From the NCBI GenBank assembly GCA_001777915.1, contig MFFN01000007.1, positions 4,807 through 68,806 of the forward strand: a stretch of 64,000 nucleotides of DNA, written 5' to 3'. Position numbers and translations under genes: made by a program. The stretch comes from Candidatus Edwardsbacteria bacterium RifOxyA12_full_54_48 (GTDB lineage: Bacteria > Edwardsbacteria > AC1 > EtOH8). Positions 3,014 to 42,066 of the stretch are shown here, piece after piece (position 1 is the stretch's first letter; every line of letters starts with the position of its first letter). The notes beneath the pieces were generated by a model that was given only the letters and a program-made list of their open reading frames with translations, was not told the DNA's origin and did not search any database.

Positions 3014-3153
3014 GGCAGGCAAAAATATCCATATCCCAGGGCCTCTGGTCTAGCGGCAGGCAAAAAACATTGGTGATGACAATTACTTTGGCCGAACGGA
3101 GGCCCGTTCCCTAATTCGGCGAACCTGGCAAATCAAATTATGGGGCATAACTA

Positions 3154-4236: not shown

Positions 4237-4278
4237 AGGTTGCCAGGGGCGGGTATATACAGATGAAGGTCTTTTAAG

Positions 4279-7432: not shown

Positions 7433-7478
7433 TACTATGAAACGGCGGGTATTAAATTAGATACCGGAGGTGGTTAAA

Positions 7479-8153: not shown

Positions 8154-8202
8154 TTAGGATGATAGTTGTGAAAATTAAAAACAAATACAGGGGGAAGAAA
8201 AA

Positions 8203-8562: not shown

Positions 8563-8580
8563 ACGATCAACTGTAACAAG

Positions 8581-11500: not shown

Positions 11501-12294
11501 CAGCAAAAGGCTCTAAGGCAATTGCCGCGCCATTAGTAAAAGCCTACCCAATGTCTGTTGATCCGGTGCCATGTTTCTATGTAGACTTGGGAACCGAAGA
11601 AGCGGGCAATTTTACTATCCAGAAAAAAGGCACGTTTTACTATGGATTGCATCCTGGTTTTACTGTAGATTATCACCCATCAATGCTTAAATATAATTTC
11701 CAAAATCTGGATAAAAACAAACGCTACAGAATTAAAGTTACATATTATCATGAATTTGATAAAGCCATTAAACAAACGCTATCAGTAGACAAAACCTTTA
11801 ATGCAAAATCCAATATTGAGCCCAAAACGGTTGTTACCGAAGAACATTGGATTCCCAATAGTTGTATAAAAGATGGGCAGATAGAGGTAACGATAGCCAA
11901 AATTATTGGTGAATATGCGGTTTGTTCGGTTATAGCTCTCTATGAATATGACCGGGATTGCGACGGTAAAACCTCCGAAGACATCGCCGAAAGCACCAGC
12001 AAGACAGTTAATGTATACAGCTATGAGCTGATGCAGAACTACCCCAACCCCAATACCGGCAAAACGGCCATCAAATATCAATTAGCCCAGCCGGGGAAAG
12101 TCAACCTGAAAATCTACAACACCTTGGGGCAAGTGGTAAAAACCTTGGTTTCGCAGGAACAGCAACCAGGATATTATAATGTAGCCTGGGGTGGTAGAGA
12201 TAATACCGGCAAAACAACAGCCAATGGTGTGTATTTCTACAGATTAGAAGCTGGCGATTTTAAAGCCACCAAGAAGATGGTAGTGATCAGGTAA
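8581..12294 (+). CDS. Very large secreted protein with BNR/Asp-box-like repeats and a T9SS (Por) C-terminal sorting domain
   Basis: 1237 aa with signal peptide. Asp-box-like 'YSIDGGYNWTAI' and 'SSSIDDCETWS'. N-terminal 'NHEGDWEHINVV' segment of uncertain family. C-terminal ~85 aa 'NYPNPNTGKTAIKYQL...KIYNTLGQVVKTL...GVYFYRLEAGDFKATKKMVVIR' matches the T9SS CTD pattern. AT-rich 5' half. Confidence 0.7.
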   Translation: MIIMFLKQIFIALLLSASICSAADSDGNGVPDEVEQALVERFKPCVVLPYSDRGVAPEPVDIMHVNSYITGYNSVREYYYKVPKLWVSFYALAGGDYCGTRPLFRVYQQLYIDYLATWDMPITFATGKFSNVTSETYTYSGYIPDSDYKNQKYAIRLHADYGGPDNGGGYYDQPGGWYDAYLNGRTVTSGTASFTWDKGSNYPATTYAHLFVESGETTIQYYFFYPFNDGWNNHEGDWEHINVVLTGQDPATAQIKRIYYYFHDLCTISWPTGTEPSGYQNFYNVLDGTHPVVFVGGSLSAAGGAGEGSHGSYPTFGIWPDIKYYQDEAVTTHTDYSKYIHYNSINAQIIKGREDYDYNVNPEMSWLGANIRWGHICVASPGDWQQTFDVGQRSPKGPAWQETWRNNYAGYTAYYGPPYSVPYSWTWPTDNTAPTVAINYPSSGSYFIKSRQYRIQWYATDNIGGTNGIKNCFLYYSIDGGYNWTAISGANPILNYNWFNWTVPDVESKNCKIKVSAYDAMGYSAETISPTFTIGSIFAVPTISGSVVSSSSKAELPDVRLASNVNKPYADQAKYKPRYCEFLWAGRVYNSSIIDCGTYYSANILNEAVSLPRTYTAKWVYNIWEGGVVVGMVEGPISSSITVYPPNPNDPVVAETNTSEATAYSNGKKIVVDNAGKIHSVFAISDSVYYSSSIDDCETWSTPTAVGIGKRPAIEITAANMPTICWNNGNRLYSTKKASGAFEEPQLIYTGPEGSEISYLSYVLDQNTNNSYLGWVDEGATGSSVLIATYNPSTSANLSPTPIDQGGADAFKSPSLALDKAGNLKIAWSHSGKVYYKDNSEFFEMGDNGIHPIVDTYGDKTTVVWQEEIAPNIYQVVKKTKGLTGWSDKEIISYPDSLNADFPVVAAAGQYVYSKNVNGSDYDLIWNAEYDNGWSIHTQNLSGAQGGISRYPSIAFKQGWPKSKLYVLWTEEMPAKGSKAIAAPLVKAYPMSVDPVPCFYVDLGTEEAGNFTIQKKGTFYYGLHPGFTVDYHPSMLKYNFQNLDKNKRYRIKVTYYHEFDKAIKQTLSVDKTFNAKSNIEPKTVVTEEHWIPNSCIKDGQIEVTIAKIIGEYAVCSVIALYEYDRDCDGKTSEDIAESTSKTVNVYSYELMQNYPNPNTGKTAIKYQLAQPGKVNLKIYNTLGQVVKTLVSQEQQPGYYNVAWGGRDNTGKTTANGVYFYRLEAGDFKATKKMVVIR

Positions 12295-17158: not shown

Positions 17159-17788
17159 ATGAAAAAAATATTGACCATCATGGTAGGTCTTTCGCTGGCA
17201 GCTTTCATCTCCTGCAAAAAGGAGGAGATGGAAAGCCTGCAGAGCCAAGTTCCGGCTGAATCCCAGGCCCAGCCCGACGTCAAGAGGATCATGGAGAAAT
17301 CGGTGGTGGTTCTGGATACCGATTTCGGCCAGATAGAGATAGAGCTGTTTCCCAAGGACGCCCCCCAGACCGTTCTGAATTTCGTCAGCAAGACTTTGGC
17401 CCGGTCGTTCGACGGGACCACCTTCCACCGGCTGGTCCCCGGTTTTGTGATCCAGGGCGGAGATCCCTTATCAAAGGACGGCGATCCCAATAACGACGGC
17501 TATGGCGGGGAGCAGATGTCGGCCGAGCCGCGCCAGAAGTCCAACCTTCGCGGAACCATCTCCATGGCTTCCTCCTCGCGGGTCCAGCCGATAGACTCCC
17601 AGTCCGACGCCCAGTTTTTCATCAATCTGGACGACCAATGCGCCCGGCTGGACCAGATGGGCTTCATCCCCTTCGGCAAGGTGGTCAAGGGCCTGGAGGT
17701 GGTGGATCTCATCGCCAAACAGCCCCGCGATATGCGGGACCGTCCCACCAAGAATATCACCATCAAGAGCATCAGCATAAAACAATAG
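17159..17788 (+). CDS. Peptidyl-prolyl cis-trans isomerase, cyclophilin type (lipoprotein)
   Basis: 'FHRLVPGFVIQGGDPLSKDG' cyclophilin signature; lipobox 'AAFISCKK'. Confidence 0.85.
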   Translation: MKKILTIMVGLSLAAFISCKKEEMESLQSQVPAESQAQPDVKRIMEKSVVVLDTDFGQIEIELFPKDAPQTVLNFVSKTLARSFDGTTFHRLVPGFVIQGGDPLSKDGDPNNDGYGGEQMSAEPRQKSNLRGTISMASSSRVQPIDSQSDAQFFINLDDQCARLDQMGFIPFGKVVKGLEVVDLIAKQPRDMRDRPTKNITIKSISIKQ

Positions 17789-17797
17789 TTGGATCTA

Positions 17798-17840
17798 AAA
17801 GAACGGGGGCCGAGCCAAAAGCTCGAGCCCCCGTTCTTTA
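17798..17840. terminator. Bidirectional stem-loop terminator between the convergent PPIase and sigma-54 activator genes
   Basis: 'aaagaacgggggccgagc-caaaa-gctcgagcccccgttcttt', a near-perfect 15-16 bp GC-rich stem with A/T flanks. Confidence 0.6.
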
Positions 17841-19499
17841 TTGATCTTTGCCGTCTGGCTTATTTTCGCCGGGCGGTTTCATTTTATAACGTCCTATCAG
17901 CCGATATACCTGCTGGCGGGTGATGCCCAACTGCCTGGCTGAAGAGGTGATATCCCACCGGTTGGCTGCCAGGGCCTGGGAAAGATGCTGTCTTTCCAGT
18001 TTCCTTTTAGCCTCCTTCAGGTTGCCGGGTTCCGTTTCTGCCTGGGGAGAGGCCAGCAATCCCAAATGGTCCGGCTCGATCAGCCGGTCGTCACACATGA
18101 TCACCGCCCGCTCGATCTTGTGCTCCAGCTCCCGAATGTTTCCCGGCCACTGATATCCCATAAGAGAGAATTTGGCTTCAGGGCTGAAGCGGGCTGCTTC
18201 TTTTTTATGTTTGAGGGAGAATTTTTTCAGAGAGGATTCGGCCAGCAGTAAAATATCGCTGCCCCGGTCCCTTAGGGGGGGGAGCTCCAGGGTGATGATG
18301 TTAAGCCGATAGTAGAGATCCTTGCGGAATATTCCCTTGGCTACCTCCTGCTCCAGGTCGTGGTTGGTGGCGGCAATGATCCGGACATCCACCCGGATCT
18401 GCTCCCGGCCCCCCAGGTGCTCGATCACCCCCTCCTGGATGGCCCGTAGCAGCTTGATCTGCAGGGGCAGGGCCATCTCCCCGATCTCATCCAGAAAAAC
18501 GGTTCCGCCGTTGGCCATCTCAAATTTCCCCATCTTGCGGGCAAAGGCTCCGGTAAAGGCCCCCTTCTCATAGCCGAACAATTCCGATTCCAGAAGATTT
18601 TCCGGAATGGAGCCGCAGTCGATAACGATGAAGGGTTTTTCCTTGCGCTGGCTTAAGTCATGGATCTCCCTGGCCACCAGGGTCTTTCCGGTGCCCGACT
18701 CCCCCAACAGCAGCAGATTGACCTCGGAGCCGGCCACCCGCCGGATGATGGAGAAGACACCATCCATGGCCGGGCACTGCCCCAGCAGGTCGCTCCGACC
18801 GTCCAACAGTTGCTGCAGGGACAGGTTTTCCCTCTCCAGCCGCAGCCGCTTCTCCTCCTCCAGGGTTTTGATGCCCTCCACCAGCCGGGCATTTTCTATG
18901 GATATGGCCGCCTGGGCGGCCAGGGCGGCCAGCAGGTCCAGATCGTGATGGCTGAAGGTCTCCTGGATCCGCTGGCTGTCCACATAGATGACGCCTATGG
19001 CTTTGCGTTGCTGGGCCTGCCCGGCTAACAGGGGAACGCACATCGATGAACGGAGCTGGAGGTCGGCCACCGAGGCGGCCTGGTTGAACTCCGGATCCTG
19101 GCTGATGTCCTTAAGCCACAGGGGCTGTCCGGTGGTGATGACCTTTTCGGTTATGGTGCGGCTGAAGCGAAGGTCGTCCTTGTCCCAGGCCTGGTTGGGG
19201 CCGGCCCGGGTGACCGTAATGTTCAATTTCCCGCTCTGGTCATACAGCATCAAAAAGCCCCGCGAGGCCCCGGTCAGCTCCATCACCGAATCCATGATGG
19301 TGTCCAGCAGCTGGTCCTGGTTCAACACCCGGCTGATCTTGCGGGAGACCTCCAACAACAGGCTCAGGGCGGCTGCATCCTGTCCCAGACTGCCGGTCCG
19401 GCCCTGCATCTCCTCCAGGGCCTGGGCCGCGGCAGCCAGGTCCAGCTCGGCTTCGGCCACCAAATTTTCGACATTATTGATTCTGCGATTATCCTGCAA
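17838..19499 (-). CDS. Sigma-54-dependent transcriptional activator (GAF sensor domain, AAA+ sigma-54 interaction domain, Fis-type HTH)
   Basis: '[18 protein letters not shown]' (Walker A), 'GAFTGA' motif, C-terminal '[19 protein letters not shown]' HTH. Overlaps the upstream kinase gene by 11 nt. Confidence 0.85.
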
Positions 19500-22400
19500 T
19501 GGACAGTACCTCCTGCTTCAGACGCTTGATCTCCTTGAACAGCCTGCGCCGGACAGGGGATAGGACATAGGCGGTCTTGAGGTCCGGCTGGCTGATGTTG
19601 GCCAGGGCCTGTTTTATCAGCTGCAGGGCCTTTTGGTAGTTCTCCAGGGCCGGGCGGTATCTCTTCTGCCTGGCCCAGTAGCGGGCGATGGCCGACAGGA
19701 TGGGCCAGGTGGTTTCGGCGATGTTGACCCGCCCGGCGATCTCCAGTGCCCACTCTAGGTATTTTAGGCCCTCCAGCCCCTTCAGCTCCAGCAGCTCCCC
19801 CTTCAGCAGCATCGCCTCGGCTGCCAGCTGCTGTTCCTCCACCCGCTGGGCCAGGCTTAGCGATTTATCGGCCAGGGCGGAGGATTCCTCCAACTGGCCC
19901 AGCTCCCGATGCAGGTCGGCCAGGTTCTTTAAAATGTAAGCCTCGCCGGCCTTGATGTCCAGTTCGGAGAATATCTCCCGGGCCTTGCTCAGGTCATCCT
20001 TGGCCTTTGCCCACTGATGGCGCATATGGGCAATCCGGCCCGACAGATTGACCGCCCGGCCGGTCTCCAGCCGACCCAACTCCCGGGCCAGGTCCAGCGA
20101 TTTCTGGCAGAAGAGATCGGCGTCCTTTAAACTGCCCAGCGATAGGTAGAACTCGGCCTTGCGGATGAAGGCATCCTGCATCACATCCCGGGCCCCGATG
20201 TTGACCGCCAGCTGGATGGCTCGGTTGTAGTTCCAGAGGGCCTGGTCCCACTCTCCCCGGGCTTTGTGTATCAGTCCTATGTTTATCAGAGAGACGGCGG
20301 TCTCGAAGCTGGCTCCAATGCGCTCCATGGTCTGCAGGCACTTGCCGTGGTAATCCAGGGCCTTCTCCCAGTCGTATAGGTGGCGGTAGATCAGGGCCAG
20401 GTTGTTGTAGGAACGGGCCAATCCGCTGATATCGCCTATCTTTTCCCTGATGGCAAAGCTCTTCTGGTGGCATTCGGCCGAGCGGTCCCAGTCGTACATC
20501 CTGTAATATACCAAACCCAGATTGTTGTAGCTGGCGGCAATACCGTAGAGGCTGCCCTCCCGCTCCTTGATTGCCAGGCTTTGTCTATGGGCCGAGAGGG
20601 CCTGGCCCCACTCGGCCAGATGCCAGTAGGCCTGCCCCAGGGTGTTGTACAGCCCGGCCTCCACTGCTCCCCGTCCCCCCTCGGGGAGTATCTTCAACGC
20701 ATCAAGGCAGGTCCGTTCCGCGGTGCGGTATTCCCCCCGGCTTAGGCAGGTGACGGCCATGGCTCCCATCAGGCGGGCGGTGGCCTCCGGGTTGTTGCCG
20801 GCAACGGCCAGGCCCTGTCGGAAATACTCCATAGAGTCATCGTAGTTCCCCAGTCTCTCTTGGCAGCGTCCCAGCTTGTAGAACAGGTCGGGCGAGGGCC
20901 CTCTCTGTTCGAATAACTCCCGGGCCAGCTTGAGGGCCCGAGAATACTCTCCGGAGAGGTAGTAGAGCTTTTGCAGCCTCTCCATGGATGCCGCATCGTT
21001 GGGGCCCTGAGTCAGGGCCTTCTCGAAATGGAAGATGGCCTGGCCCTTGGAATACTCGAACAGGGTCTCCCCGGCCCTAAGATGGTATTCTCTAGACTTC
21101 TTCGGGCGGCCAGCCATCTCCCAGTGCCGGGCCAGGGAAGATAGGTCCTGCAAAGAGCTCCGGCCTTCCTGCTCCATCATTTCGGCGGCCCGCCGGTGAA
21201 GGGTTTTGGCGGCCTGGGGAGAAAGCGATTGATACACCATCTTGGCTATGGCCGAGTGATTAAGACCGTATAGCTGGCGGCCATCCGGACCATGGATTGC
21301 GGCCAGCAGGCTCCGGTTGATGAGGTCTGTCAGATCCAGGGAGACTTGGGGTGTTGCCGCGCCTGACAAGGCGGCAATTTCATCCAGGGACGACGGCCGT
21401 TCCATCACCGACATGGCCTGGACCATTGCCAGTTGGGAGGCGCTCAGGTTGTTCAGCTTGGACTCCATGGCTTTGGAGAGGCTGCCGGGCAGGTTGATCC
21501 TCTCCAGATCGCGGATGGCCGGCTGCCACTGCCCCCGGCGCTTGACCACCAGCCCCTGGTCCAGCAGTTGCTGCACCGATTCCTCTATCAGCAGGGGATT
21601 GCCCTCGGCCTGGGCGGCTATTCTGTCCAGCAACGGCCGGTAGCTTTGAATTCCGGGGAGGACATTGGCCAGAAGCTCGGCGGCCTCACCCTGCCCCAGC
21701 CTCTTGAGGAAGATCTGCTCCGCCAGGTTCTCGACGGTCAGGCTTTCGATGGCCTGGAGCAGATGATGGCCGGGGGGAAGGTCATCGCTGCGGGAGCTGC
21801 CCACCAGCAGTACCCTATATTTAGGGACATTGCGTACCAGGTAACAAATCGCCTCCAGGCTTTCCCGGTCGATCCATTGAATGCTCTCCAGGAGCAGGGC
21901 GGCAGCGGCGGAGGGCGAAGATTCCAAGGTTCGGATGATGAACTGGGAGATGGCATCCAGCCGGCGCAGGTGTTTCTCACCGGCCGGCAGCAGTGGGGCG
22001 GGTGGCAGGTCACGGATCTCGGGGAGAGCGGCCAGGGCCGGACAGATCTCGGCCAGCAGGGGCCCGTATTCGGTTAAGGCCTGGTGGCAGCAGCCCTGGG
22101 CCAGTGGCAGCAGCTGCCGGATGATCTGGAGAATTATGTCAAAAGCTGCGCTTTGTTCCTCATAACAGCGGGCCCATATCACCTGGCATTCGGAGATCTG
22201 GGCCTGGAGGGCGAATTCGTTTAGCAGCTTGGTCCGGCCGATGCCGGTCTCCCCCGAGACAAAAAGGCAGCCGCCCTGTCCCCCCACTGCGTTGTTCAGG
22301 GCCTGGCGGAGCTCACTCAGCTCCTTGTCCCTGCCCACCATCTTGCTTTTGAAGATGAAGCTGGTTCTGCCCGTCACCGCCCGCCCGGGCTGTGCCCCCG

Positions 22401-23187
22401 CTAGCAATGATAACTGTTCCGACACCTCGCCGGCCGATAAGGGGCGCAGGGCGGGGTCCTTGTTCAACAGCCGGAGGATCAGGGAATCTATGGGTTTGGG
22501 GAGCGAGCGGTTGAAAGACGAGGGGAGAGGAGGCGGCTGGGATAGGTGCTTGCGGGCCAGTTCCTTGGCACCACTGGACTCGAAGGGGAGGCGTCCGGCG
22601 AACATCTGGAACATCAGGACACCTAGAGAGTAAAGGTCGGACCGTCCGTCGGCGGCCTGCCCGGCTATCACCTCGGGGGATATGTAGGCCGGGGTGCCGG
22701 TTCTGCGCGAAGTCGCGTTGGCGGCATAGCTGGCCTGCCCGAAGTCAAGCAGTTTTACCGATCCGTTCCCGTCGGTAAGTATATTGCTGGGCTTGACGTC
22801 CAGGTGGATTATCCTGCGGCTGTGTATATACTCCAGGGCATCGCACAGCTGGGCCGTCAGCAGGCATCGTTCCTCGATGGCCAGCCCCTGGCAGGCTGCC
22901 AGGATGTCCGGCCCCGGGATGAATTCCATCACCAGACAACAGTTGCCCTGGTATGACTCATAGCTGTAGACCCGGGCTAGGTTGGGATGGGCCAACTCGG
23001 ACAGGACCTGAAACTCATGGCTGGCGGCATTTATATCTACCAGATTGCCGGGAAATATTTTGACGGCATATATTTTATCATCAGTCAGGTCCTTTGCCTT
23101 GTAGACCTGACTGAAGGATCCCTGCCCCAACAGCTCCAGGGTCAGATACTTATTGGCGATGATATGTCCCGAAGGCAATATATTCAT
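19489..23187 (-). CDS. Ser/Thr protein kinase fused to a STAND-type P-loop NTPase and TPR repeats
   Basis: Kinase motifs 'LGQGSFSQVYKAKD' and 'HRRIIHLDVKPSNIL'; Walker A 'FVSGETGIGRTKLL'; multiple C-terminal TPR-like repeats. ATG at 23187 ('MNILPSG') preferred over the TTG at 23244. Confidence 0.8.
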   Translation of the reverse strand: MNILPSGHIIANKYLTLELLGQGSFSQVYKAKDLTDDKIYAVKIFPGNLVDINAASHEFQVLSELAHPNLARVYSYESYQGNCCLVMEFIPGPDILAACQGLAIEERCLLTAQLCDALEYIHSRRIIHLDVKPSNILTDGNGSVKLLDFGQASYAANATSRRTGTPAYISPEVIAGQAADGRSDLYSLGVLMFQMFAGRLPFESSGAKELARKHLSQPPPLPSSFNRSLPKPIDSLILRLLNKDPALRPLSAGEVSEQLSLLAGAQPGRAVTGRTSFIFKSKMVGRDKELSELRQALNNAVGGQGGCLFVSGETGIGRTKLLNEFALQAQISECQVIWARCYEEQSAAFDIILQIIRQLLPLAQGCCHQALTEYGPLLAEICPALAALPEIRDLPPAPLLPAGEKHLRRLDAISQFIIRTLESSPSAAAALLLESIQWIDRESLEAICYLVRNVPKYRVLLVGSSRSDDLPPGHHLLQAIESLTVENLAEQIFLKRLGQGEAAELLANVLPGIQSYRPLLDRIAAQAEGNPLLIEESVQQLLDQGLVVKRRGQWQPAIRDLERINLPGSLSKAMESKLNNLSASQLAMVQAMSVMERPSSLDEIAALSGAATPQVSLDLTDLINRSLLAAIHGPDGRQLYGLNHSAIAKMVYQSLSPQAAKTLHRRAAEMMEQEGRSSLQDLSSLARHWEMAGRPKKSREYHLRAGETLFEYSKGQAIFHFEKALTQGPNDAASMERLQKLYYLSGEYSRALKLARELFEQRGPSPDLFYKLGRCQERLGNYDDSMEYFRQGLAVAGNNPEATARLMGAMAVTCLSRGEYRTAERTCLDALKILPEGGRGAVEAGLYNTLGQAYWHLAEWGQALSAHRQSLAIKEREGSLYGIAASYNNLGLVYYRMYDWDRSAECHQKSFAIREKIGDISGLARSYNNLALIYRHLYDWEKALDYHGKCLQTMERIGASFETAVSLINIGLIHKARGEWDQALWNYNRAIQLAVNIGARDVMQDAFIRKAEFYLSLGSLKDADLFCQKSLDLARELGRLETGRAVNLSGRIAHMRHQWAKAKDDLSKAREIFSELDIKAGEAYILKNLADLHRELGQLEESSALADKSLSLAQRVEEQQLAAEAMLLKGELLELKGLEGLKYLEWALEIAGRVNIAETTWPILSAIARYWARQKRYRPALENYQKALQLIKQALANISQPDLKTAYVLSPVRRRLFKEIKRLKQEVLSIAG

Positions 23188-23605
23188 TGTAACAAAAAGA
23201 TACGATTCGATTTTCAGTTTATCATAAAAACTTGGCAAATGCAATAATTATTTTAAGTAAACTTTACTATTTCAGTTTTATCGAATTTGTTTTCATTTTA
23301 AATTTAAAATATCAATACCAAGTAATTTATATGCGTAACAAAATGATGCATATAAATTATTGTTAATACATTGTAATACAATAAAATAGAATTATACTTT
23401 GATTGAAATCCAAATTGTACGATATCATTAATATGAAAAATGAAACAAAATGATACATATTATGGTGGCGACAGAATCAATCGTCAATATATCATAATAT
23501 TCAAGCTATTGTTATATAATAAGTTAAAAAAGTAAAATTAATTCTGGTATGAAAAATGCTTATATTCTGACATAACAATAATAACATCAAAAAGGGGTAG
23601 TACAA

Positions 23606-26600
23606 ATGAAAAAGGTAGGTTTACTGGTAGCGGCCGTCATTATTCTGGCCGGATTGGCATCAGCCCAGACCACCATCTTCTCAGACAACATGACCGGCTT
23701 CCCCACGGGTTGGACGCTTTCGCCCACCACCGGTGGCTGGACCAAGACCTCCACCAAGTATTACAGTTCATCCTACAGCGCCATGTGCGACAATGTCAGT
23801 CCTTACGGGGCCAACCAGAACAATTATATAACCAAAACGGTCAGCCTATCGGGATATAGCAACGTCGCCCTGAAATTCTACATCTGGCAGTACAGCGAGA
23901 GCGGCTACGACTATATCCGGGTGCAGTACCTGGTGGGCAGCACCTGGACCACCGCCTGGCAGAGGGCCGGCAGCTATCAGTCTTGGGCCCAGCAGTCGGT
24001 CAGCATTCCCAACACCGCCACCCAGGTCCGATTTTATTTCAACTCCGACGGCAGCGTCCAGAACACCGGGGTGTACATCGATGACGTGGTCCTTACCGGG
24101 ACAGCGGCCACCGTTACCCAGAATGATGCCGGGACTGGCACCGATGCCGGCAACACCATAGCCACCGCTACCACGGTAAATCCGGGTTCGTGGACCGGCT
24201 GTTATTTGGATGCCACTGATCGAAACGACTATTACAAGTTTAACGTTACCGCGGGCCAGGTAATCAAACTAAAAGTAACCCCGCCCTCAACGGCCGACTA
24301 CGACCTCTATCTGCATAACACATCGCAGACCCAGGTTGGCGCCAGCACCCAGGGAACCGGCTTGGTTGACTCCATTGTCTACACCGCCACCACTACCGGC
24401 TACTGGTATTGCCGGGCCTACGAATACAGCGGCACCGGCAACTACTCATTGCTGATCTCGGTGAGCGGCGGGACCACCCCGACAACGATTCTGGCGATCA
24501 ACACGACCTCGTGGGCGCCGGTGGCGGCGGGCGGGACCAGCTCGGCAGTCAGCGTGACCAACAGCGGCACGAGCGGCAGCGTGATCGCCTACACGGTGTC
24601 CGACAACGCCACTTGGCTGACCACCTCGGCCGCCAGCGGCAATACCCCGGGCAGCTTCACCATGACGGCCTCGGCCAACACCGGTGCGGCGCGAAGCGCC
24701 ACGGTCACTGTGGCCGCGACCGGCCAGACCTCCAAGACCATCACCGTCAACCAGGCGGCAGCCAGCACCGGCGGAGCTGAATGGACCGTCATGATCTACC
24801 TGAACGCCGACAACAACCTGGAGACCGACGGGATCAACGATTTTCTGGAGATGGCCGCCGCCTCATACAGTTCGGGCAAGATCAACGTCATCGTTCAGAT
24901 GGACCGGGCCTCGGGCTACGCCACCACCTATGAGAATTGGACCGGCTGCAAGCGTTTCAAGATCGCCAGCGGGATGACCCCCACTGCGGCCTACCAGATA
25001 TCGGACCTGGGCGAGGTGGACATGGGCAGTCCCACCACCCTGGTCAACTTTGCCACCTGGGCCATCCAGAACTACCCGGCCAACCGCTATTCCCTGGTTA
25101 TGTGGGATCACGGCGACGGCTGGTACAAGACCGATGCCAGCCCCATCAAGGGCTTCTCCAACGACGACTCTCACGGTTCGGTGATCGGCATAGCCAACGG
25201 CGAATTCGCCAGCGCCATGGCCCAGATCAAGACCGCCCTGGGCCGGAACCTGGACCATATCGGCTGGGATGCCTGCCTGATGGGCATGTGGGAGGTGCTG
25301 GACATATCCCGCAATTACGCCAACGTGGCCAACGTCTCCGAGGAGACCGAGGGGGCCGCCGGCTGGTATTACACCACCTGGCTGAACGTCATGAACACCA
25401 CCCCCACCACCAGCGCCATTGACATGGGCAAAGCCATCATCAACGGCACCACTCAATCGACCCTGTCGGTGGTGGACCTGACCCTGATCTCCAATCTGAC
25501 CACCAAGGTCAACACCCTGGCCACCGAGCTGATGGCGACCCGGGGGGCCGGCCTGGGCGCCAGCATCAGCACGGCGCTTAACAATACCCTCAAGTTCTCC
25601 ACCAGCTATTTTTCATATCACATAGATCTGTCCGACTTCGCCGCCAAGGTCAAGGCCGCCATCACCACCCGGCCCACCCTGACCACCGCCTGCGACAACG
25701 TCATCAGCGCGGTGACCTCGGCGGTCAAACTGTACAAGAACTCCTCCACCTACGCCAATGCCCGGGGCATCGCGGTCTATCACTGCAAGATCGACGGCTC
25801 CAATTACGATACCGCCTACAACAGCCTGCCCATCGCCTCCAGCACGGTGTGGGATGAGTACATCAAGGGCGGCTCCAGCGGCGGAACCACCGCAAATTAC
25901 ACCAAGAGCACCGCCACCTACAGCTGGGATGCCTCGGCCACCACGGCCACCGGCCTGACCGGGGACGACCAGAGCGTCAGCAAGTCCATCGGTTTTGCCT
26001 TCAACTTCTACGGCACCAGCTATACCACCGTCAACATCTGTTCCAACGGGTTCCTCAATTTCGGCACCAGCTCCACCGCCTACACTCCGGCCGCCATCCC
26101 CAACACTGCGGCCCCCAACGCCCTGATCGCCGGCTTGTGGAGGGACCTTAACGTATCGGGCGGCGGAACCATCACCTACTACTCTTCGGCCACCAAATTC
26201 GTGGTGTCATTCAACGCCGTCAAGAACTACTCCAACACCAGCCTGCAAACCTTCCAGATGATCCTGACCCCCGACGGCAAGATCAAGATCCAGTGGGGTG
26301 GCATCACCACCGAGACCTATGCTTCGGGGGTGGAGAACCAGGGCGGCACGCTGGGCGTGGCGGCCACCGCCGCGGCCAATTCGGCGGCGCTGTTCACCCC
26401 GCCGGCGGCCTGGAGCAGCCCGATCAATGAGAATGAATTGGAGACCAGGCTCAATCCGCAGGGGATGCCGCTATCCAACCAGCTGTTCCAGAACGCCCCC
26501 AATCCGGTCAGATATAAAACCCTGATCGCCTTCCAATTGGAGAAGCCGGGCGCTGTTTCCCTGAAGATCTACAATCTCAACGGACAGCTGGTCAGAACCC

Positions 26601-26749
26601 TGGCCTCGGGGCAGCATAATTCCGGATATCATCAGGCCATGTGGGACGCCAAGGATGATGCCGGAAGGAAGGTGGCTGACGGAGTATATATCTATAAGCT
26701 GGCCTGCGGCGAGTTCAACCACGCCAAAAAAATGGTGCTGGTCAAATAA
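23606..26749 (+). CDS. Secreted clostripain-like (peptidase C11-type) cysteine peptidase with pre-peptidase domain and T9SS C-terminal sorting domain
   Basis: 1047 aa with signal peptide. 'EWTVMIYLNADNNLE', 'LVMWDHGDGWY' (putative catalytic His) and 'IGWDACLMGMWE' (putative catalytic Cys) resemble C11-family signatures. C-terminal 'NAPNPVRYKTLIAFQL...KIYNLNGQLVRTL...GVYIYKLACGEFNHAKKMVLVK' T9SS CTD. Confidence 0.7.
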   Translation: MKKVGLLVAAVIILAGLASAQTTIFSDNMTGFPTGWTLSPTTGGWTKTSTKYYSSSYSAMCDNVSPYGANQNNYITKTVSLSGYSNVALKFYIWQYSESGYDYIRVQYLVGSTWTTAWQRAGSYQSWAQQSVSIPNTATQVRFYFNSDGSVQNTGVYIDDVVLTGTAATVTQNDAGTGTDAGNTIATATTVNPGSWTGCYLDATDRNDYYKFNVTAGQVIKLKVTPPSTADYDLYLHNTSQTQVGASTQGTGLVDSIVYTATTTGYWYCRAYEYSGTGNYSLLISVSGGTTPTTILAINTTSWAPVAAGGTSSAVSVTNSGTSGSVIAYTVSDNATWLTTSAASGNTPGSFTMTASANTGAARSATVTVAATGQTSKTITVNQAAASTGGAEWTVMIYLNADNNLETDGINDFLEMAAASYSSGKINVIVQMDRASGYATTYENWTGCKRFKIASGMTPTAAYQISDLGEVDMGSPTTLVNFATWAIQNYPANRYSLVMWDHGDGWYKTDASPIKGFSNDDSHGSVIGIANGEFASAMAQIKTALGRNLDHIGWDACLMGMWEVLDISRNYANVANVSEETEGAAGWYYTTWLNVMNTTPTTSAIDMGKAIINGTTQSTLSVVDLTLISNLTTKVNTLATELMATRGAGLGASISTALNNTLKFSTSYFSYHIDLSDFAAKVKAAITTRPTLTTACDNVISAVTSAVKLYKNSSTYANARGIAVYHCKIDGSNYDTAYNSLPIASSTVWDEYIKGGSSGGTTANYTKSTATYSWDASATTATGLTGDDQSVSKSIGFAFNFYGTSYTTVNICSNGFLNFGTSSTAYTPAAIPNTAAPNALIAGLWRDLNVSGGGTITYYSSATKFVVSFNAVKNYSNTSLQTFQMILTPDGKIKIQWGGITTETYASGVENQGGTLGVAATAAANSAALFTPPAAWSSPINENELETRLNPQGMPLSNQLFQNAPNPVRYKTLIAFQLEKPGAVSLKIYNLNGQLVRTLASGQHNSGYHQAMWDAKDDAGRKVADGVYIYKLACGEFNHAKKMVLVK

Positions 26750-26773
26750 AATAACCTCCTGAAGTTAAGAACA

Positions 26774-26803
26774 AAAGGGCCGTTAGTTGCGGCCCTTTTT
26801 AAT
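26774..26803 (+). terminator. Rho-independent terminator
   Basis: 'aaaagggccg-ttagtt-gcggccctttttaatttt'. Confidence 0.65.
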
Positions 26804-26873
26804 TTTCCCAAGTTTGACCCGGAAATTTCAACTTTCGCTTTATTAAAATTAATTTCTATGCTATAATTTCCTT

Positions 26874-28052
26874 ATGAGAATACTTCACATAGTCACCGCT
26901 TTCCCCCGGGACGAAAAGGACATCATCACCCCCTGGCTGATAGAGATGCTGCGGCATTACCCGGCGCACGGCCTGGAGGCGGAGATATTCACTTCGTCCT
27001 ACCAGGGCCTGGGCGAACAGATGGTCCACGGGCTGCCGGTGCACCGCTTCCGTTATTTCTTCAAACGCTGGGAGAACCTGACCCACGAGGAGACCACCCC
27101 GGACCGCATGAAAAGATCCCTGCTGTACAAGATCATGCCGGCTTTCTACATCATTGGCGGAATGATCGGGATCGTTAAACTGTTAAGAAAAAGCCAATAC
27201 GATGCGGTCCATGTCCACTGGCCGCTGCCGCATGCCGTGTTCGGCTGGGCGGCCAAAACATTCTTCGGACTGCCGGTGGTCACCACCTTCTACGGGGTGG
27301 AGCTGCGCTGGGTGAAGCGCTCCATGCCTCTGCTGAAAGGTTTTCTGGCCTGGTCGGCCCGGATGTCGGATAAAGTTGTGGCCATCTCCAACTATACCGC
27401 CGGCGAGGTCAGGGAGCTGGCCGATGTGCCGGTGGAGGTGATCCCCTATACCATCAGCCTGCCGGAGAACCAGGAATTTTCACAGCCTCCGGCCGGTCCC
27501 AAGATCATCCTTTCGGTCAGCAGATTGGTGGAACGCAAGGGCATCATCTATCTGATAGACGCCCTTAAATATCTGCCGCAGGAATTGGAGGTCCATCTGG
27601 CCATCATCGGCGACGGCCCGGAGAGGGAACGTTTGAAGGAGAGGGCCCTGTCACAGAATCTGGGGCGAAAGATAAGCCTGCCCGGCTGGGTCAGCGAGGC
27701 GGAACTGGAGAGCGCCTACCGCAATGCTTCGGTGTTCGTTCTGCCGGCCATCATAGATTCCAAGGGCGATACCGAGGGTCTGGGGGTGGTCATCCTGGAG
27801 GCCATGAATTACAAGGTGCCGGCCATCGGCAGCGATCTGGGCGGGATCACTGACATTATAATAGATGAAGAAACAGGTTTGTTAGTGCCGGAGAAGGATC
27901 CCCAGGCTCTGGCCAGGGCAATTACCAGGATATTGACAGATGAGGACCTAAGAACTAAAGTTGTCGAGGGAGCCTATCAACATTTAAAGCGTAACTTTAG
28001 TTGGGATAACATATTAGAGAAATGGGTGAGAATCTATAAAGGTCTTGAGTAG
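26874..28052 (+). CDS. Glycosyltransferase family 4 (GT-B fold, group 1)
   Basis: 'LEAMNYKVPAIGSDLGGITDIIIDEETGLLVPEKD' (E-x7-E-type motif region); 'LAIIGDGPERERL'. Confidence 0.8.
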   Translation: MRILHIVTAFPRDEKDIITPWLIEMLRHYPAHGLEAEIFTSSYQGLGEQMVHGLPVHRFRYFFKRWENLTHEETTPDRMKRSLLYKIMPAFYIIGGMIGIVKLLRKSQYDAVHVHWPLPHAVFGWAAKTFFGLPVVTTFYGVELRWVKRSMPLLKGFLAWSARMSDKVVAISNYTAGEVRELADVPVEVIPYTISLPENQEFSQPPAGPKIILSVSRLVERKGIIYLIDALKYLPQELEVHLAIIGDGPERERLKERALSQNLGRKISLPGWVSEAELESAYRNASVFVLPAIIDSKGDTEGLGVVILEAMNYKVPAIGSDLGGITDIIIDEETGLLVPEKDPQALARAITRILTDEDLRTKVVEGAYQHLKRNFSWDNILEKWVRIYKGLE

Positions 28053-28083
28053 CTGTTTGTTAAAAACAGGTATAAAATTCACT

Positions 28084-28112
28084 AAAAACGACAGTTTTTT
28101 ACTGTCGTTTTT
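28084..28112 (+). terminator. Rho-independent terminator after the GT4 gene
   Basis: 'aaaaacgacagt-tttttt-actgtcgttttt' followed by a T-tract. Confidence 0.7.
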
Positions 28113-28214
28113 ATATTATTGTCATACAATATGTTATAAATCTGTTTATGCAAAAGGGATACCAAAAAGAATAAAAAAAGTCATTAAATATCACCTCCAG
28201 GGCTGATTTTAGGC

Positions 28215-28243
28215 TTGACATCAGGCCATATATGGTGCATAAT
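28215..28243 (+). promoter_or_regulatory. Sigma-70-type promoter of the nrd operon, with a candidate NrdR-box-like palindrome in the spacer
   Basis: TTGACA at 28215-28220, 17-nt spacer, CATAAT at 28238-28243. Spacer contains the palindrome 'CCATATATGG' at 28226-28235. Confidence 0.55.
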
Positions 28244-28275
28244 TACCCCCTTGCCACAAAATAAAGGGGTACGTC

Positions 28276-32684: not shown

Positions 32685-32850
32685 CCTCCCTGGCCCTCCC
32701 CGCAGCGGAGAGGGAATGGACATTGCGAAGAGGCGAGTTAATGTAAGAAAAAGCCAAGCGTTTAATGCTGTGAGTGTACTGAAATGAATTTTACTAAAGG
32801 TGCGTATTCAAATAACTATTACTAAGATTGTAGAAAAAATAGGGGGTTTT

Positions 32851-33093
32851 ATGGAAATTGTGAGAAAAGCACCTGCAGCCTTGAATCTTTTATGGAAAGA
32901 AGGTTTTTTTAAGAAGGATAAAAGTATAGCTGAAGTAGAAACTGTGTTGCACGAGAAAGGTTATAATTTTGGTTCTGCCACACGTAAGGCACTAGAGCGT
33001 ACAAAGTTTCTTATGCAAAAAGGTGAAAGGGGTAATAGGAGGTTCATACAGAAGCACCCATATGTGGAGATAAAAAATGAAAAACACAAGTAA
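32851..33093 (+). CDS. Hypothetical small basic protein (AT-rich island, paralog 1)
   Basis: ATG at 32851 with AGGGGG 5-10 nt upstream. Shares a 'KEGFFKKDKSIAEVETVLHEKGY...RKALER' region with the next ORF. Confidence 0.45.
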   Translation: MEIVRKAPAALNLLWKEGFFKKDKSIAEVETVLHEKGYNFGSATRKALERTKFLMQKGERGNRRFIQKHPYVEIKNEKHK

Positions 33094-33400
33094 GGATTTA
33101 TTGAAAGTATTAGTAGATCACGAAAAACGTATATCGAGGTTAGAAAGTTCGGGCGCAAAAATTAAACCACCAAGAGTAAAGAAAAATATCTCTCTGCCAG
33201 ATCATATTCTTGCATTAAGAGACAAGGGTTTCTTTGCCAAACCTAAAACAGTAGAAGATACACAGAATAGGTTATCAGATTTCTATTCATGTGATAAGAA
33301 CCGTGTAGCAGTGGCACTATTAAGGTTATCTACCAAAAAGCAATTACGAAGAACTTCAACAAAGAAAAACGATAAAAATAATATTGCGTTTACATGGTGA
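33077..33400 (+). CDS. Hypothetical small basic protein (AT-rich island, paralog 2)
   Basis: 107 aa. 'DKGFFAKPKTVEDTQNRLSDFY...RVAVALLRL' aligns with the previous ORF. Lys-rich C-terminus. Confidence 0.45.
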   Translation: MKNTSKDLLKVLVDHEKRISRLESSGAKIKPPRVKKNISLPDHILALRDKGFFAKPKTVEDTQNRLSDFYSCDKNRVAVALLRLSTKKQLRRTSTKKNDKNNIAFTW

Positions 33401-34182
33401 GCAACATGAATAAACCCGATATAATAAAAAAAATAAAACTTATACAAATTAAAAAGAATACAATCCAGTATTATATTATACAATTATTAATTAAGGGAAT
33501 ACTAAACGACATAGTTGATTCGGCGGGTTTGGCTCATCTTATTAATGAAGAGTATCAAAGGAAGATTAAACCCTCAGATATTGTGGCATGCATTAAGCCC
33601 ATTGTTAGTAACGATATATTACGTAGTCTTATTATCAAAAAGGGTAAACGGTCATATAGGTATTGGTATCCAGCTTGGATAGCAAAGGATGTCGCTATTT
33701 CTAGGGTCAATAAAACAAAAGAAAAGGTATTGTTTATTACTGGACATGAAGCATGGTCAGACCAAAATAAAAGATTAAAAAGTATTTTCGATATTTTGGA
33801 AGGCGAAATAGATATCATCGATCCTTATTATGGATATAATACCCTGCATGCGCTATCATTATTTGGGAAAACAAGAAAGGTCCGTTTTCTAACTTGCAAT
33901 ACTGGTAATAGTGAAAAACGAGATATTACAAATTTTAATTTGCAGTTTGCAAGATTTAAAAAAGAATTTCGTAATATATTATTCAAACAATTTGCGTTAC
34001 CTGAAATACACGATAGGTATATTTTGTCTAAAAATGCAATTGTTATCATCGGTCATGGGATAAAAGATATTGGCAACAAAGAGTCCTTTGTCATTTATCT
34101 AGAGAAAGAATTGGTTTCCAAAATATTGCCAACACTGCGAAAACTATTCAATCTTAAATGGAGCAATTCAATAAATATATAA
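33394..34182 (+). CDS. Hypothetical protein (AT-rich island) with a C-terminal segment resembling a degenerate PLD-like (H-x-K-type) motif
   Basis: 262 aa. 'IHDRYILSKNAIVIIGHGIKDIG' resembles the PLD/Nuc 'HxK(x)4D(x)6G' signature but with Arg in place of Lys. No confident family assignment. Confidence 0.4.
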   Translation: MVSNMNKPDIIKKIKLIQIKKNTIQYYIIQLLIKGILNDIVDSAGLAHLINEEYQRKIKPSDIVACIKPIVSNDILRSLIIKKGKRSYRYWYPAWIAKDVAISRVNKTKEKVLFITGHEAWSDQNKRLKSIFDILEGEIDIIDPYYGYNTLHALSLFGKTRKVRFLTCNTGNSEKRDITNFNLQFARFKKEFRNILFKQFALPEIHDRYILSKNAIVIIGHGIKDIGNKESFVIYLEKELVSKILPTLRKLFNLKWSNSINI

Positions 34183-36425: not shown

Positions 36426-36543
36426 AATATTTTGGTTTGTTGAATTATCCCTTTAAGTGTCCCTATCAATTGGATAGTATAGTGTAACTTAGTGATTATG
36501 TCAAGAGAAAAAATAAAAAAAAATAAAAAAATAAAAAAAGTTC

Positions 36544-36572
36544 TTGACAAATATGGACAAAATGAATAAAAT
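36544..36572 (+). promoter_or_regulatory. Sigma-70-type promoter (TTGACA, 17 bp, TAAAAT) preceded by an A-tract, upstream of the HTH gene and pil operon
   Basis: TTGACA at 36544-36549, 17-nt spacer, TAAAAT at 36567-36572. A-rich tract 'gagaaaaaataaaaaaaaataaaaaaataaaaaaag' at 36505-36540 is UP-element-like. Confidence 0.55.
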
Positions 36573-36638
36573 GTCTAAAGGTAGCTTTGTCTATAGTTAT
36601 ATATACTTACCGATACTTCATTCTTGAGCGAGGTAAAT

Positions 36639-36892: not shown

Positions 36893-37942
36893 ATGCTTTT
36901 TGGAAAAAAACCAGCCACCATAGGTTTGGACATAGGCAGCAGCCAGATAAAGATCGTCGAGATCCAGAAGACCGGCAAGGGGCTGTCGCTGGTCAATTAC
37001 GGGATCGCTCCGCTGCTGCCGGAGGCCATCGTCGAGGGCGAGATCATGGACCGGACCCTGGTGATAGACACCATCAGGACCCTTTTGGAGACCAGGCAGA
37101 TAAAAAGCAATAATGTGATAACTGCCGTCTCCGGCCGGGGCGTCATCGTCAAGCGGATCAATATGGACAAGATGAAGGAGCAGGAGGCCCGGGAGAGGAT
37201 CAAGTGGGAGGCCGAACAGCATGTGCCGTTCGAGATCTCCGATGTGGTGCTGGATTTCCAGATCATCAACCCCGATTCGGGCAACAACCAGATGGAAGTG
37301 CTGCTGGTGGCGGCCAGGAACGAGACGGTGAACGTCCATCTGGACCTGCTGTCCGGGGCCGGCTTGAACCCGATCCTGCTGGATTACGGGGCCTTTGCCG
37401 TGCAGAATGCCTTCGAGGCCAGTTACGAAATGCCGGCCGACGAGATCATAGCCCTGGTCAATATCGGGGCCGATAACACCAACATCAATTTTGTCAAGAA
37501 CGGCGTGCCCTATTTCACCCGGGACCTCCCCATGGCCAGCAACTCCTGCCTGCAACTGATGCAGAAGAACCTGGGGATCTCCTACGAGCAGGCCTCCGAG
37601 TTGATCAAGGGCGAGACGGTGTCCGACGTCAGCCAGGAATCGGCGGCCTCGGTGTTCCAGTCCTTCTCCGACGATTTTGCCTCCTCCATAGAGCGAACCC
37701 TCTCCTTCCTGGCCATGTCCGGCGGGGGAGAGAGGATGAGCCGGATATATATGTCGGGCGGCGGGGCCCTGATCCCGTCACTTCAGGATCATCTTAAGGA
37801 GAGGTTCGGGATCCCGGTGGAGATCATAAACCCGTTACAAAAGATCAGCTATGATCCGGGCCTGTTCGGAGCCGTAGCCAGCGAAAAGGTTTCCCCCATC
37901 TTGACCCTGGCCATCGGCCTGGGGCTTAGGGAGGTAAAATAA
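36893..37942 (+). CDS. pilM: Type IV pilus assembly ATPase-like protein PilM
   Basis: 'IGLDIGSSQIKIVEI' actin-like N-terminus; 349 aa. Confidence 0.85.
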   Translation: MLFGKKPATIGLDIGSSQIKIVEIQKTGKGLSLVNYGIAPLLPEAIVEGEIMDRTLVIDTIRTLLETRQIKSNNVITAVSGRGVIVKRINMDKMKEQEARERIKWEAEQHVPFEISDVVLDFQIINPDSGNNQMEVLLVAARNETVNVHLDLLSGAGLNPILLDYGAFAVQNAFEASYEMPADEIIALVNIGADNTNINFVKNGVPYFTRDLPMASNSCLQLMQKNLGISYEQASELIKGETVSDVSQESAASVFQSFSDDFASSIERTLSFLAMSGGGERMSRIYMSGGGALIPSLQDHLKERFGIPVEIINPLQKISYDPGLFGAVASEKVSPILTLAIGLGLREVK

Positions 37943-38592
37943 TGATACAGATTAATTTAATCCGGGATCGCAAGGTAGAGAGAGTGGCCGGTGCCAAACC
38001 GGCCGGAGCCGGACGCAGCTTTTCATTACCCAAGCTTCCTTTCAATGTCGGCATCTTGGCCAGCGTTCTGGGGGTGGTCATTGTGCTGGTGGTCATGGTT
38101 TTGACCATGATCTCGCAGAAGGCCAAGATAGCCAACCTGGAATCCAAGATCAAGGGTTATAATGAAGAACTTGCAAAGCTGGCCGGTCCCAAGCGGCTGG
38201 TGGATGATTATCTTAAAAAGCAGGCCGAGGTGAACACCAAGCTTAACGAAATAGCCTCCATCGACAAAACCCGGTTCTATACCGTCACTTTGTTGGATCA
38301 ATTGAGCCAGGCCCTGCCGGATTATCTCTGGCTTACCAGCATGAAGGATGACAAGGATTTGATCTCCATGGAAGGAATGACCTTCTCCAACCTTATCGTG
38401 GCTGATTTCATGGACCGCCTCAAGGGTTCGGGATATTTTTCAAATGTTGAATTAACCCAAACCACCAAAGCCACCAGCGAGGGGCGCGATCTGGTGAAAT
38501 TCTCCATCACTTCAAGATACACCGAGAACCCGAGCAAACCCGTCAGCCCTGGGGAAACGACTGGCCAAACAGCCGGAAAGGGGTCAAAATGA
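37942..38592 (+). CDS. pilN: Type IV pilus assembly protein PilN
   Basis: 'MIQINLI' N-terminus, single TM helix, coiled-coil; adjacent to pilM. Confidence 0.75.
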   Translation: MIQINLIRDRKVERVAGAKPAGAGRSFSLPKLPFNVGILASVLGVVIVLVVMVLTMISQKAKIANLESKIKGYNEELAKLAGPKRLVDDYLKKQAEVNTKLNEIASIDKTRFYTVTLLDQLSQALPDYLWLTSMKDDKDLISMEGMTFSNLIVADFMDRLKGSGYFSNVELTQTTKATSEGRDLVKFSITSRYTENPSKPVSPGETTGQTAGKGSK

Positions 38593-41931: not shown

Positions 41932-42066
41932 TTTAATTCCTCCAAATTTTATATGTTGTTGATAATTTTATGCTTTACAAACATATAAAAATATCATATC
42001 ATTCATATAAAAGTCAAGCATTATATTTAAAATACAACCGGAAGCGAAAATTAAAGGACATGCTTA

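Follow-up and report, generated by a model that had tools for sequence, protein, structure and literature searches.

What does a 1047-aa open reading frame (ORF) encode when it seems to join a protease domain to a secretion tail in an uncultured bacterium, and how would its product be activated, exported and transcribed? The ORF (23606-26749, plus strand) lies in the window analysed here, the whole stretch of 64,000 nt from contig MFFN01000007.1 of Candidatus Edwardsbacteria. An earlier note, made from the letters of the window, had described a clostripain-like C11 peptidase with a C-terminal sorting domain (CTD) of a type IX secretion system (T9SS) behind an AT-rich leader, and had quoted two motifs as a putative His/Cys dyad. 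The ORF and both motifs were confirmed exactly as described, with 'WDHGDGW' at residues 500-506 (His502 at nt 25109-25111; context LVMWDHGDGWYK) and 'DACLMG' at residues 555-560 (Asp555 at nt 25268-25270 and Cys557 at nt 25274-25276; context HIGWDACLMGMW). On balance, the account that we favour is that the protein is the modular secreted zymogen of a C11 (MEROPS, clan CD) cysteine endopeptidase, most likely transcribed from a sigma-54 promoter. Its layout is best explained as a Sec signal peptide followed by MAM-like, PPC, BACON, C11 and NIDO-like domains and a type-A T9SS CTD (Table 1).

A protein of 100% identity has been deposited as 'MAG: hypothetical protein A2509_07710' from Candidatus Edwardsbacteria bacterium RIFOXYD12_FULL_50_11, which is classified in the candidate phylum Edwardsiibacteriota. 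Full-length homologs are found in metagenome-assembled genomes (MAGs) of Edwardsbacteria, UBP2 and TA06 (69-89% identity) and of WOR-3 (~50%), and several carry the automatic names 'clostripain-related cysteine peptidase', 'T9SS type A sorting domain-containing protein' or 'pre-peptidase C-terminal domain-containing protein'. Because homologs of the same architecture have been auto-named in public databases, the type of protein is already known. The 'hypothetical protein' label can nevertheless be corrected to that of a probably active C11 peptidase with unusually many accessory domains, from an uncultured groundwater phylum, and the view that Edwardsbacteria degrade extracellular protein by means of T9SS-type cargo gains support.

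Catalytic domain and predicted activation

The assignment to family C11 was borne out by a family hidden Markov model, by homolog alignment and by a fold search. Pfam PF03415 (Peptidase_C11) matched residues 398-718 with 121.8 bits against a curated cutoff of 25.8 (E 6.1e-35), which places the protein in a peptidase family. A phmmer search of PDB sequences recovered clostripain (9cip, 7.7e-13) as well as thetapain (6n9j), the P. distasonis C11 zymogen (6mzo) and PmC11; against 9cip, MWDHGDG was paired with MANHGGG, His on His, and WDACLMG with FDACLMG, Cys on Cys. His502 and Cys557 thus correspond to clostripain His176 and Cys231, and the His (H-G) precedes the Cys (A-C) in the chain. One result weighs against a closer relationship, namely that the clostripain equivalog model TIGR02806, whose cutoff is 550 bits, gave no more than 59; we therefore regard the protein as a member of the C11 family and not as a clostripain ortholog.

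An AlphaFold2 model was built on an alignment of 44 homologs and reached a mean predicted local distance difference test (pLDDT) score of 81.5. When the model was compared with the PDB using Foldseek, the best seven matches were C11 enzymes only (9cip, 6n9j, 6nag and 6mzo; E 3e-17 to 2e-13, target TM-score 0.63-0.73), followed by the collagen-binding domain of ColG (5iku), which has the PPC fold. The predicted structure combines a caspase-like alpha/beta/alpha fold with the C-terminal helical subdomain of C11 enzymes.

The presence of four accessory binding-type domains led us to consider whether the C11 domain might be a non-catalytic pseudo-peptidase that serves only as a binding scaffold. 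Nothing specific was found in favour of such a scaffold, and the pattern of conservation makes it very improbable: His502, Gly503 and Cys557 are invariant among the 44 homologs, whose identity ranges down to 23%, so that the dyad proposed by the earlier note is free of substitutions; Asp555 and an ADNNL motif are at least 90% conserved; and the basic residues that flank the putative activation loop are retained. The C11 peptidase is convincingly intact in sequence and is probably catalytically competent.

Cleavage specificity was predicted as well. An Asp two residues before the catalytic Cys is the main S1 determinant for a basic P1 residue (PMC4850288). The corresponding residue is present here as D555-A-C557, in the position of PmC11 Asp177 and clostripain Asp229, and from this arrangement we infer cleavage after Arg or Lys.

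Residues 508-514, between the catalytic His and Cys, form the sole low-confidence stretch inside the catalytic domain (pLDDT <50). They fall within a segment bounded by K508 and K515, and in the phmmer alignment K515 is aligned with clostripain Arg190. The latter is the second cut of the nonapeptide excised from clostripain and aligns with the PmC11 autoprocessing site Lys147 (PMC4850288). In orthologs WYK and (K/R)GFSNDD are retained on either side of an acidic linker that varies and has 6-9 residues. The zymogen would activate itself by a cut after K515, possibly also after K508, in this disordered loop.

Accessory domains and the C-terminal tail

Upstream of the catalytic domain, a confident model and fold matches that include enteropeptidase and Eph ectodomains describe a MAM-like beta-sandwich (domain 1), which Pfam MAM and InhA-like_MAM reached with 21.9 and 21.8 bits, both below their cutoffs. 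The PPC (pre-peptidase C-terminal) domain expected by the earlier note lies above the Pfam cutoff when scanned alone, and a BACON domain that also exceeds its cutoff follows it. A NIDO-like beta-sandwich (domain 5) and a disordered linker separate the catalytic domain from the tail. These beta-sandwich accessory domains would tether the enzyme to polymeric substrates.

The same modules recur in other hydrolases of the lineage (P0027-P0040 and P0046) that have unrelated catalytic domains; identity there is 68-85% for the counterparts of residues 1-390 of the window protein, and no more than 30-48% for the CTDs. The MAM-like and PPC pair (residues 1-285) recurs in MBL-fold hydrolases, PPC plus BACON (161-390) in M14 and M4 peptidases, and PPC alone in M6 InhA-like peptidases in which the order of BACON and PPC is swapped. 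Since the identity of the accessory modules far exceeds that of the tails, these comparisons point to recent module exchange, or domain shuffling, among cargo genes.

As the earlier note had supposed, the protein ends in a domain that exceeds the cutoff of the T9SS sorting model TIGR04183 (34.2 bits against 23, residues 965-1044). In the model the tail is the last, separate beta-sandwich (strands 964-1045, pLDDT ~90) behind the disordered linker. At the other end of the protein, a probable N-terminal Sec signal peptide was recognised by reading of the sequence and as a helix in the model.

The tail could instead be read as an Ig-like surface or adhesion module of the FlgD_ig type, in a peptidase that either uses another export route or stays periplasmic or associated with the outer membrane. 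Several observations weigh on that side and against a T9SS cargo. Pfam FlgD_ig (PF13860) scored 41.4 bits (cutoff 27), better than Por_Secre_tail (PF18962), which at 21.6 bits stayed below its cutoff of 27; a Pfam scan of 31 ORFs of the window detected no T9SS core gene, nor was one found in the other loci analysed; and a search of a paper collection, full text included, returned no paper tying Edwardsbacteria to type IX secretion, or clostripain or C11 peptidases to T9SS cargo, and none that dealt with secretion in Edwardsbacteria. We nevertheless consider an Ig-like adhesion module unlikely, because TIGR04183 passes its curated cutoff, because the domain forms the very C terminus after a disordered linker and finishes in G-x-Y ... 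K-x-x-x-K, and because NCBI names close homologs for a type A sorting domain. The G-x-Y ... K-x-x-x-K ending is typical of type-A CTDs. The tail is also shared with two unrelated hydrolase-like or cargo-like proteins of the window: its last 92 aa resemble the ends of ORF 8581-12294 (47% identity) and ORF 47342-48463 on the minus strand (42%), and the same tail ends many different peptidases of the lineage. The count of three CTD-bearing genes in 64 kb given by the earlier note therefore stands, as does the identity of the second of these ORFs as an endonuclease I gene (Pfam Endonuclease_1). The description of the 1237-aa product of 8581-12294 as BNR-like found no support in Pfam, which matched its CTD only.

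The designation as T9SS cargo is drawn from the tail, and we regard it as a well-founded prediction. The protein would first be exported by Sec to the periplasm, where the T9SS would then recognise the CTD, and it would be released or attached to the surface. When homologs were sought with the C11 domain only, those returned came from candidate phyla and Muirbacterium, and none among them was named from Bacteroidota.

The divergent spacer and the adjacent kinase-activator operon

The earlier note had drawn attention to a leader of about 360 bp that was extremely AT-rich. Its composition is as described: between the start codon and the mechanical end of the divergent ORF (23245-23605) lie 361 bp with a GC content of 0.21, the flanking genes being at ~0.60, and GC falls from ~0.60 to 0.19-0.24 across ~23200-23600. 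This spacer is the longest and most AT-rich among the intergenic spacers of more than 100 bp in the window. Because other promoter-bearing spacers are AT-rich too, with GC contents of 0.23-0.35 (36426-36586, 0.24; 41932-42066, 0.23; 28053-28275, 0.32), AT-rich spacers appear to be a habit of this genome, of which 23245-23605 is the extreme. The stretch is probably not a transcribed leader, since a conserved -24/-12 element puts the likely start ~35 nt before the ATG, and most of it is accordingly read as divergent promoter and enhancer DNA. If transcription starts ~12 nt after the GC of that element, the true leader would be only ~35 nt long.

Orthologous loci were taken from the window and from Edwardsbacteria and UBP2 relatives (L001 and L003-L008), and more distant homologs from WOR-3 (L011, L012 and L020). 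Between orthologs the spacer could not be aligned by blastn except in its promoter-proximal part. When the 215 bp immediately 5' of the start codon were aligned for seven loci (A1), mean identity was 58% and there were only three conserved blocks, consisting of a 17-bp palindrome, the sequence TGGYAT-N5-WTGC and a ribosome-binding site; all three kinds of element are present in 8/8 orthologous loci. In the second block GG and GC are spaced as in sigma-54 promoters (GG-N10-GC), in a TGG...TGC context, with T, G, G, A, T ... T, G, C as invariant columns. It lies 60-73 nt 5' of the start codon in the window, L001, L003, L004, L005, L006 and L007, and in L008 it precedes an inserted gene of 285 aa that comes before the C11 gene (8/8 when the first gene is taken as reference). 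The strict pattern occurred 0.001-0.005 times per 300 bp in dinucleotide shuffles, compared with one occurrence observed per locus. The L007 version, TGGCATACTAATTGCT, is one that we take to be close to the canonical sigma-54 consensus.

The palindromes share the 17-bp form TGTAWCA-N3-TGWTACA and lie at about -165, -272 and -418 in the window. The proximal copy (site 1) is found at about -165 to -186 across loci, and in every locus it stands 104-113 bp 5' of the -24 element. Sites 1 and 2 are separated by 105-107 bp in most loci and by 121 bp in L005, and site 3 is conserved at offsets of -411 to -491 in the window, L001, L003, L004, L006 and L008. Using a position weight matrix (PWM) built with one locus left out at a time, we recovered 2-4 palindromes per locus against 0.003-0.03 in dinucleotide shuffles; in the entire window there were four matches of at least 9 bits, three of them inside the 418-bp spacer.

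On the far side of the spacer, a divergent operon on the minus strand encodes a Ser/Thr kinase with a STAND-like AAA_16 domain and TPR repeats (Pkinase 3.1e-50, AAA_16 8.1e-21, TPR_12 7.6e-43), and then a sigma-54 enhancer-binding protein (EBP; Sigma54_activat 5.9e-69, GAF 2.4e-21, HTH_8 1.9e-08). An ATG at 23187 is the likely start of the kinase gene, an equivalent start being called in orthologous contigs. The order peptidyl-prolyl isomerase (PPIase), EBP (minus), kinase (minus), AT-rich spacer, C11 (plus) is kept in the window, L001/L002, L003, L004, L006 (partial), L008 and L064, and from this synteny in 7 loci we infer that the EBP is the cognate activator that binds the palindromes.

Since the spacing of the element, the palindromes upstream of it and an activator encoded next door together give the layout of an enhancer-dependent sigma-54 promoter, control of the C11 gene by sigma-54 is, on this sequence evidence, rather probable. 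The promoter at 23546-23559 would drive the gene, the GAF-domain EBP would bind the 17-bp palindromes and activate it, and the AT-rich DNA would lend flexibility for looping. A strong intrinsic terminator lies 24 nt past the stop codon, so that the C11 gene is monocistronic.

The main competitor is that the spacer holds an ordinary divergent promoter for a housekeeping sigma factor, the conserved block and palindromes being sites of another regulator or a mark of ancestry, and the EBP being unrelated to the C11 gene. Its supporting points are that AT-rich spacers are general in the window, that several orthologs have a TATAAT-like run after the GC, and that 14 sigma-70-like hexamer pairs were counted in 23100-27000 against 3.0 expected, an enrichment that is uninformative because the background of the scan is dominated by GC-rich coding DNA. 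Other observations weigh directly against dependence on sigma-54. In most loci the flanks read TGGTAT and ATGC, weaker than the canonical TGGCAC and TTGC; no rpoN turned up when the window and the other loci analysed were searched in six frames for the RpoN box; L005 retains the motifs with no kinase/EBP operon adjacent; neither the -24/-12 element nor the palindromes were recognised in the three WOR-3 loci; and the conservation of the motifs among orthologs is partly due to shared ancestry. We still judge a housekeeping promoter unlikely. The invariant columns fall exactly on the GG and GC of a sigma-54 element, at a spacing of 10 nt in 8/8 loci, while the surrounding DNA is unalignable, and the distance from TTGGTA to TATAAT is only ~12 nt, too short for a promoter of the sigma-70 type. 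The palindromes, at their regular distances from the element and from one another, fit an enhancer layout. The neighbouring EBP, moreover, carries the GAFTGA motif (as 'EKGAFTGA'), and to our knowledge an EBP bearing this motif works only with sigma-54. As neither rpoN nor a T9SS core gene was found in the DNA searched, both machineries are assumed.

Two further candidates for the spacer were rejected. A riboswitch or small RNA leader gave no Rfam match in a permissive scan of 23000-23800, and the predicted 5' untranslated region is unstructured (z +1.55); the small ORFs are only low-complexity ones of 25-44 aa and are unconserved.

The sigma-54 layout described above amounts to a promoter and enhancer map, with a -24/-12 element, three palindromes, a candidate activator and a kinase, for a lineage that is without genetics. 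It suggests that a signalling kinase, together with sigma-54, controls when a protease that might damage its own cell is secreted.

Conservation of the operon is uneven. Window 17647-19408 and L001 1-1762, which span the EBP gene plus the last part of the PPIase gene, share 95.9% of their DNA sequence and 97.7% of the protein sequence, compared with ~72% in DNA (47% in protein) for the adjoining kinase gene and 80% in DNA for the C11 gene. This mosaic, as read from the sequences, points to recombination or to very uneven constraint.

Table 1. Positions of the genes, regulatory elements and protein domains discussed in the text (nt, window coordinates; residues, C11 precursor).
Feature	Position (nt)	Strand	Residues	Details
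C11 peptidase precursor gene	23606-26749	+		ATG start; 1047 aa; ORF listing
Signal peptide	23606-23665	+	~1-20	sequence reading MKKVGLLVAAVIILAGLASA before QTT (...LASA, then QTT); model helix residues 2-18
Domain 1, MAM-like beta-sandwich	23666-24106	+	21-167	confident model, fold matches
PPC domain	24158-24466	+	185-287	Pfam 29.5 bits against 25.9, scanned alone; fold match 5iku
BACON domain	24491-24754	+	296-383	Pfam 41.7 bits against cutoff 25
C11 catalytic domain	24776-25870	+	391 to ~755	PF03415, alignment, Foldseek
Putative autoactivation loop K508-TDASPI-K515	25127-25150	+	508-515	pLDDT, clostripain alignment, ortholog conservation
Domain 5, NIDO-like beta-sandwich	25901-26398	+	766-931	
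Disordered linker			938-954	pLDDT <50
T9SS type-A C-terminal sorting domain	26477-26746	+	958-1047	ends ...GVYIYKL...KKMVLVK
Intrinsic terminator	about 26773-26809	+		11-bp stem, 6 GC pairs, then T run
Shine-Dalgarno-like AAGGGG	23592-23597	+		8 nt before ATG; AAAGG block conserved in A1
Sigma-54-type -24/-12 element TGGTATGAAAAATGCTT	23545-23561	+		core TGGTATGAAAAATGC 23545-23559; GG 23546-47, GC 23558-59; 61 nt before ATG
Palindrome site 1 TGAAACAAAATGATACA	23441-23457			104 bp 5' of -24 element; candidate upstream activator sequence; A1 block
Palindrome site 2 CGTAACAAAATGATGCA	23334-23350			107 bp from site 1; PWM 12.6 bits; offset -270 to -307 in 7 loci
Palindrome site 3 TGTAACAAAAAGATACG	23188-23204			abuts kinase ATG; leave-one-out PWM 15.6 bits
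AT-rich divergent intergenic region	23188-23605			418 bp to kinase ATG; GC ~0.21
Ser/Thr kinase with AAA_16 (STAND-like) and TPR	19489-23187	-		likely ATG 23187; mechanical ORF to TTG 23244
Sigma-54 EBP	17838-19499	-		second operon gene; 11-nt overlap with kinase gene

A possible regulon, neighbouring genes and known systems

In three loci the C11 gene is directly preceded by a gene that is absent from the window (L007 294-1148, L008 5121-5978 and L005 ~4196-4963). It encodes a clan-CD-like lipoprotein of 284-285 aa with the lipobox ...AAGCS and the caspase-like motifs 'CYSGHGSKG' and 'FAFDACQIG', and in L007 (139/214) and L008 (4945/5049) it has its own palindrome and -24/-12 pair. A lipoprotein gene with the same promoter pair suggests a small protease regulon. 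We put forward only tentatively the wider proposal that kinase, GAF-domain EBP and sigma-54/palindrome switch are dedicated to turning on secreted clan-CD proteases in Edwardsbacteria. This switch would act on the T9SS-tailed C11 enzyme and also, in some genomes, on the caspase-like lipoprotein, whose gene has a promoter copy of its own. If true, this would be a sigma-54-controlled protease regulon that feeds a type IX secretion system outside Bacteroidota. The palindrome and -24/-12 motif pair could be used to search for further regulon members in Edwardsbacteria.

Only one other strict sigma-54-like match was found in the window (28149-28164, minus strand), so sigma-54 is no general feature of the CTD-bearing cargo genes. 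This match, TGGTATCC(C/A)TTTTGCA, lies in the spacer between a GT4 glycosyltransferase gene and nrdR and is directed away from nrdR, towards the GT4 gene's 3' end; it recurs at L008 10199 and L004 13567 and, being conserved in three loci, is probably not due to chance.

A scan of metagenomes for the palindrome plus promoter pattern returned 85 loci (L035-L119), mostly from other organisms and some of them redundant contigs, against a rough chance expectation of 10-20 matches. L064 was the single C11 ortholog among the 85, so the scan revealed no Edwardsbacteria regulon. Matches were located 20-100 nt 5' of genes from families that recurred, namely prepilin-type pilins, Hsp20-like proteins, a sigma-70-family factor of 284-305 aa, an HdrC-like 4Fe-4S protein, ClpB and a tryptophanase-like protein.

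Among the WOR-3 loci, L020 encodes a C11 homolog of 811 aa (2986-5421) with an EBP-like AAA+ gene 5' of it on the same strand (1845-2765). The EBP-like protein is truncated (306 aa), has no sensory domain and is 35% identical to the window EBP; the 220-bp spacer has a GC content of 14-18% and no recognisable GG-N10-GC element or palindrome.

Downstream of the C11 gene, two extra genes lie before the GT4 gene in the 80%-identical relative L001 (9285-14450), one for a protein of 1089 aa that has a tail of the FlgD_ig type and one for a protein of 631 aa that also ends in a match to the CTD, and a VTT-domain gene occupies the interval between the C11 and GT4 genes in L003. Elsewhere in the window an adenylate/guanylate cyclase is fused to AAA_16 (119-3013), STAND-like as the kinase is, and a type IV pilus cluster (36893-41585) includes PilM (36893-37942) and a PilQ-like AMIN-secretin (39633-41585). 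Genes of low GC content (0.26-0.43 against ~0.58 for their neighbours) were noted at 7470-12294, 32800-34182, 52077-52688 and 62089-63048; the set includes the 1237-aa CTD-bearing protein (0.43), three ORFs with no Pfam match and a YARHG/DUF4424 protein (62089-63048), and these genes may have been acquired horizontally.

Of the known enzymes, clostripain of Hathewaya histolytica (9cip), the founding member of C11, is the best structural match. It belongs to the same Pfam family as the window protein and agrees with it in the His-Gly ... Asp-Ala-Cys arrangement and in the S1 Asp; both have basic residues at the two ends of the loop between His and Cys, where the excised nonapeptide of clostripain runs Arg181...Arg190 and K515 corresponds to Arg190. 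Identity in the structural alignment is ~19-20%, and clostripain is a secreted enzyme of a Gram-positive organism that lacks MAM, PPC, BACON and NIDO modules and a T9SS tail. The C11 enzymes of gut Bacteroidales (PmC11 3uws/4yec, thetapain/iotapain 6n9j/6nag, 6mzo and fragipain 5dyn) have the same caspase-like fold (target TM-score 0.58-0.73). A cut at a Lys that follows the catalytic His frees these gut enzymes from autoinhibition, and the Asp two residues before the Cys sets the specificity for basic P1 residues (PMC4850288). They are single-domain proteins of ~350-400 aa with no T9SS tail, whereas the window protein has 1047 aa, five extra domains and the tail.

With the gingipains and other T9SS proteases of Bacteroidota the protein shares a general logic, that of a multi-domain clan-CD protease with adhesin or Ig-like modules and a cleavable CTD. 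The parallel with gingipains in a different catalytic family, suggested by the earlier note, is apt in that C11 and the C25 family of the gingipains are different families of clan CD; the gingipains also belong to another phylum, and the window protein is without their haemagglutinin/adhesin domains. PorU (6za2) appeared among the fold matches through shared beta domains only.

The predicted control region, in turn, resembles systems of the NifA/NtrC type, which likewise have a GAFTGA activator composed of GAF, Sigma54_activat and HTH_8 domains and an activator operon divergent from its target. In those systems TGT-N10-ACA-like sites lie 80-150 bp 5' of GG-N10-GC; here the sites are TGT-N11-ACA and lie ~100 bp 5'. 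Systems of the NifA/NtrC type serve nitrogen metabolism and work with a histidine kinase, whereas here the predicted target is a secreted protease and a STAND-type Ser/Thr kinase is co-transcribed with the activator.

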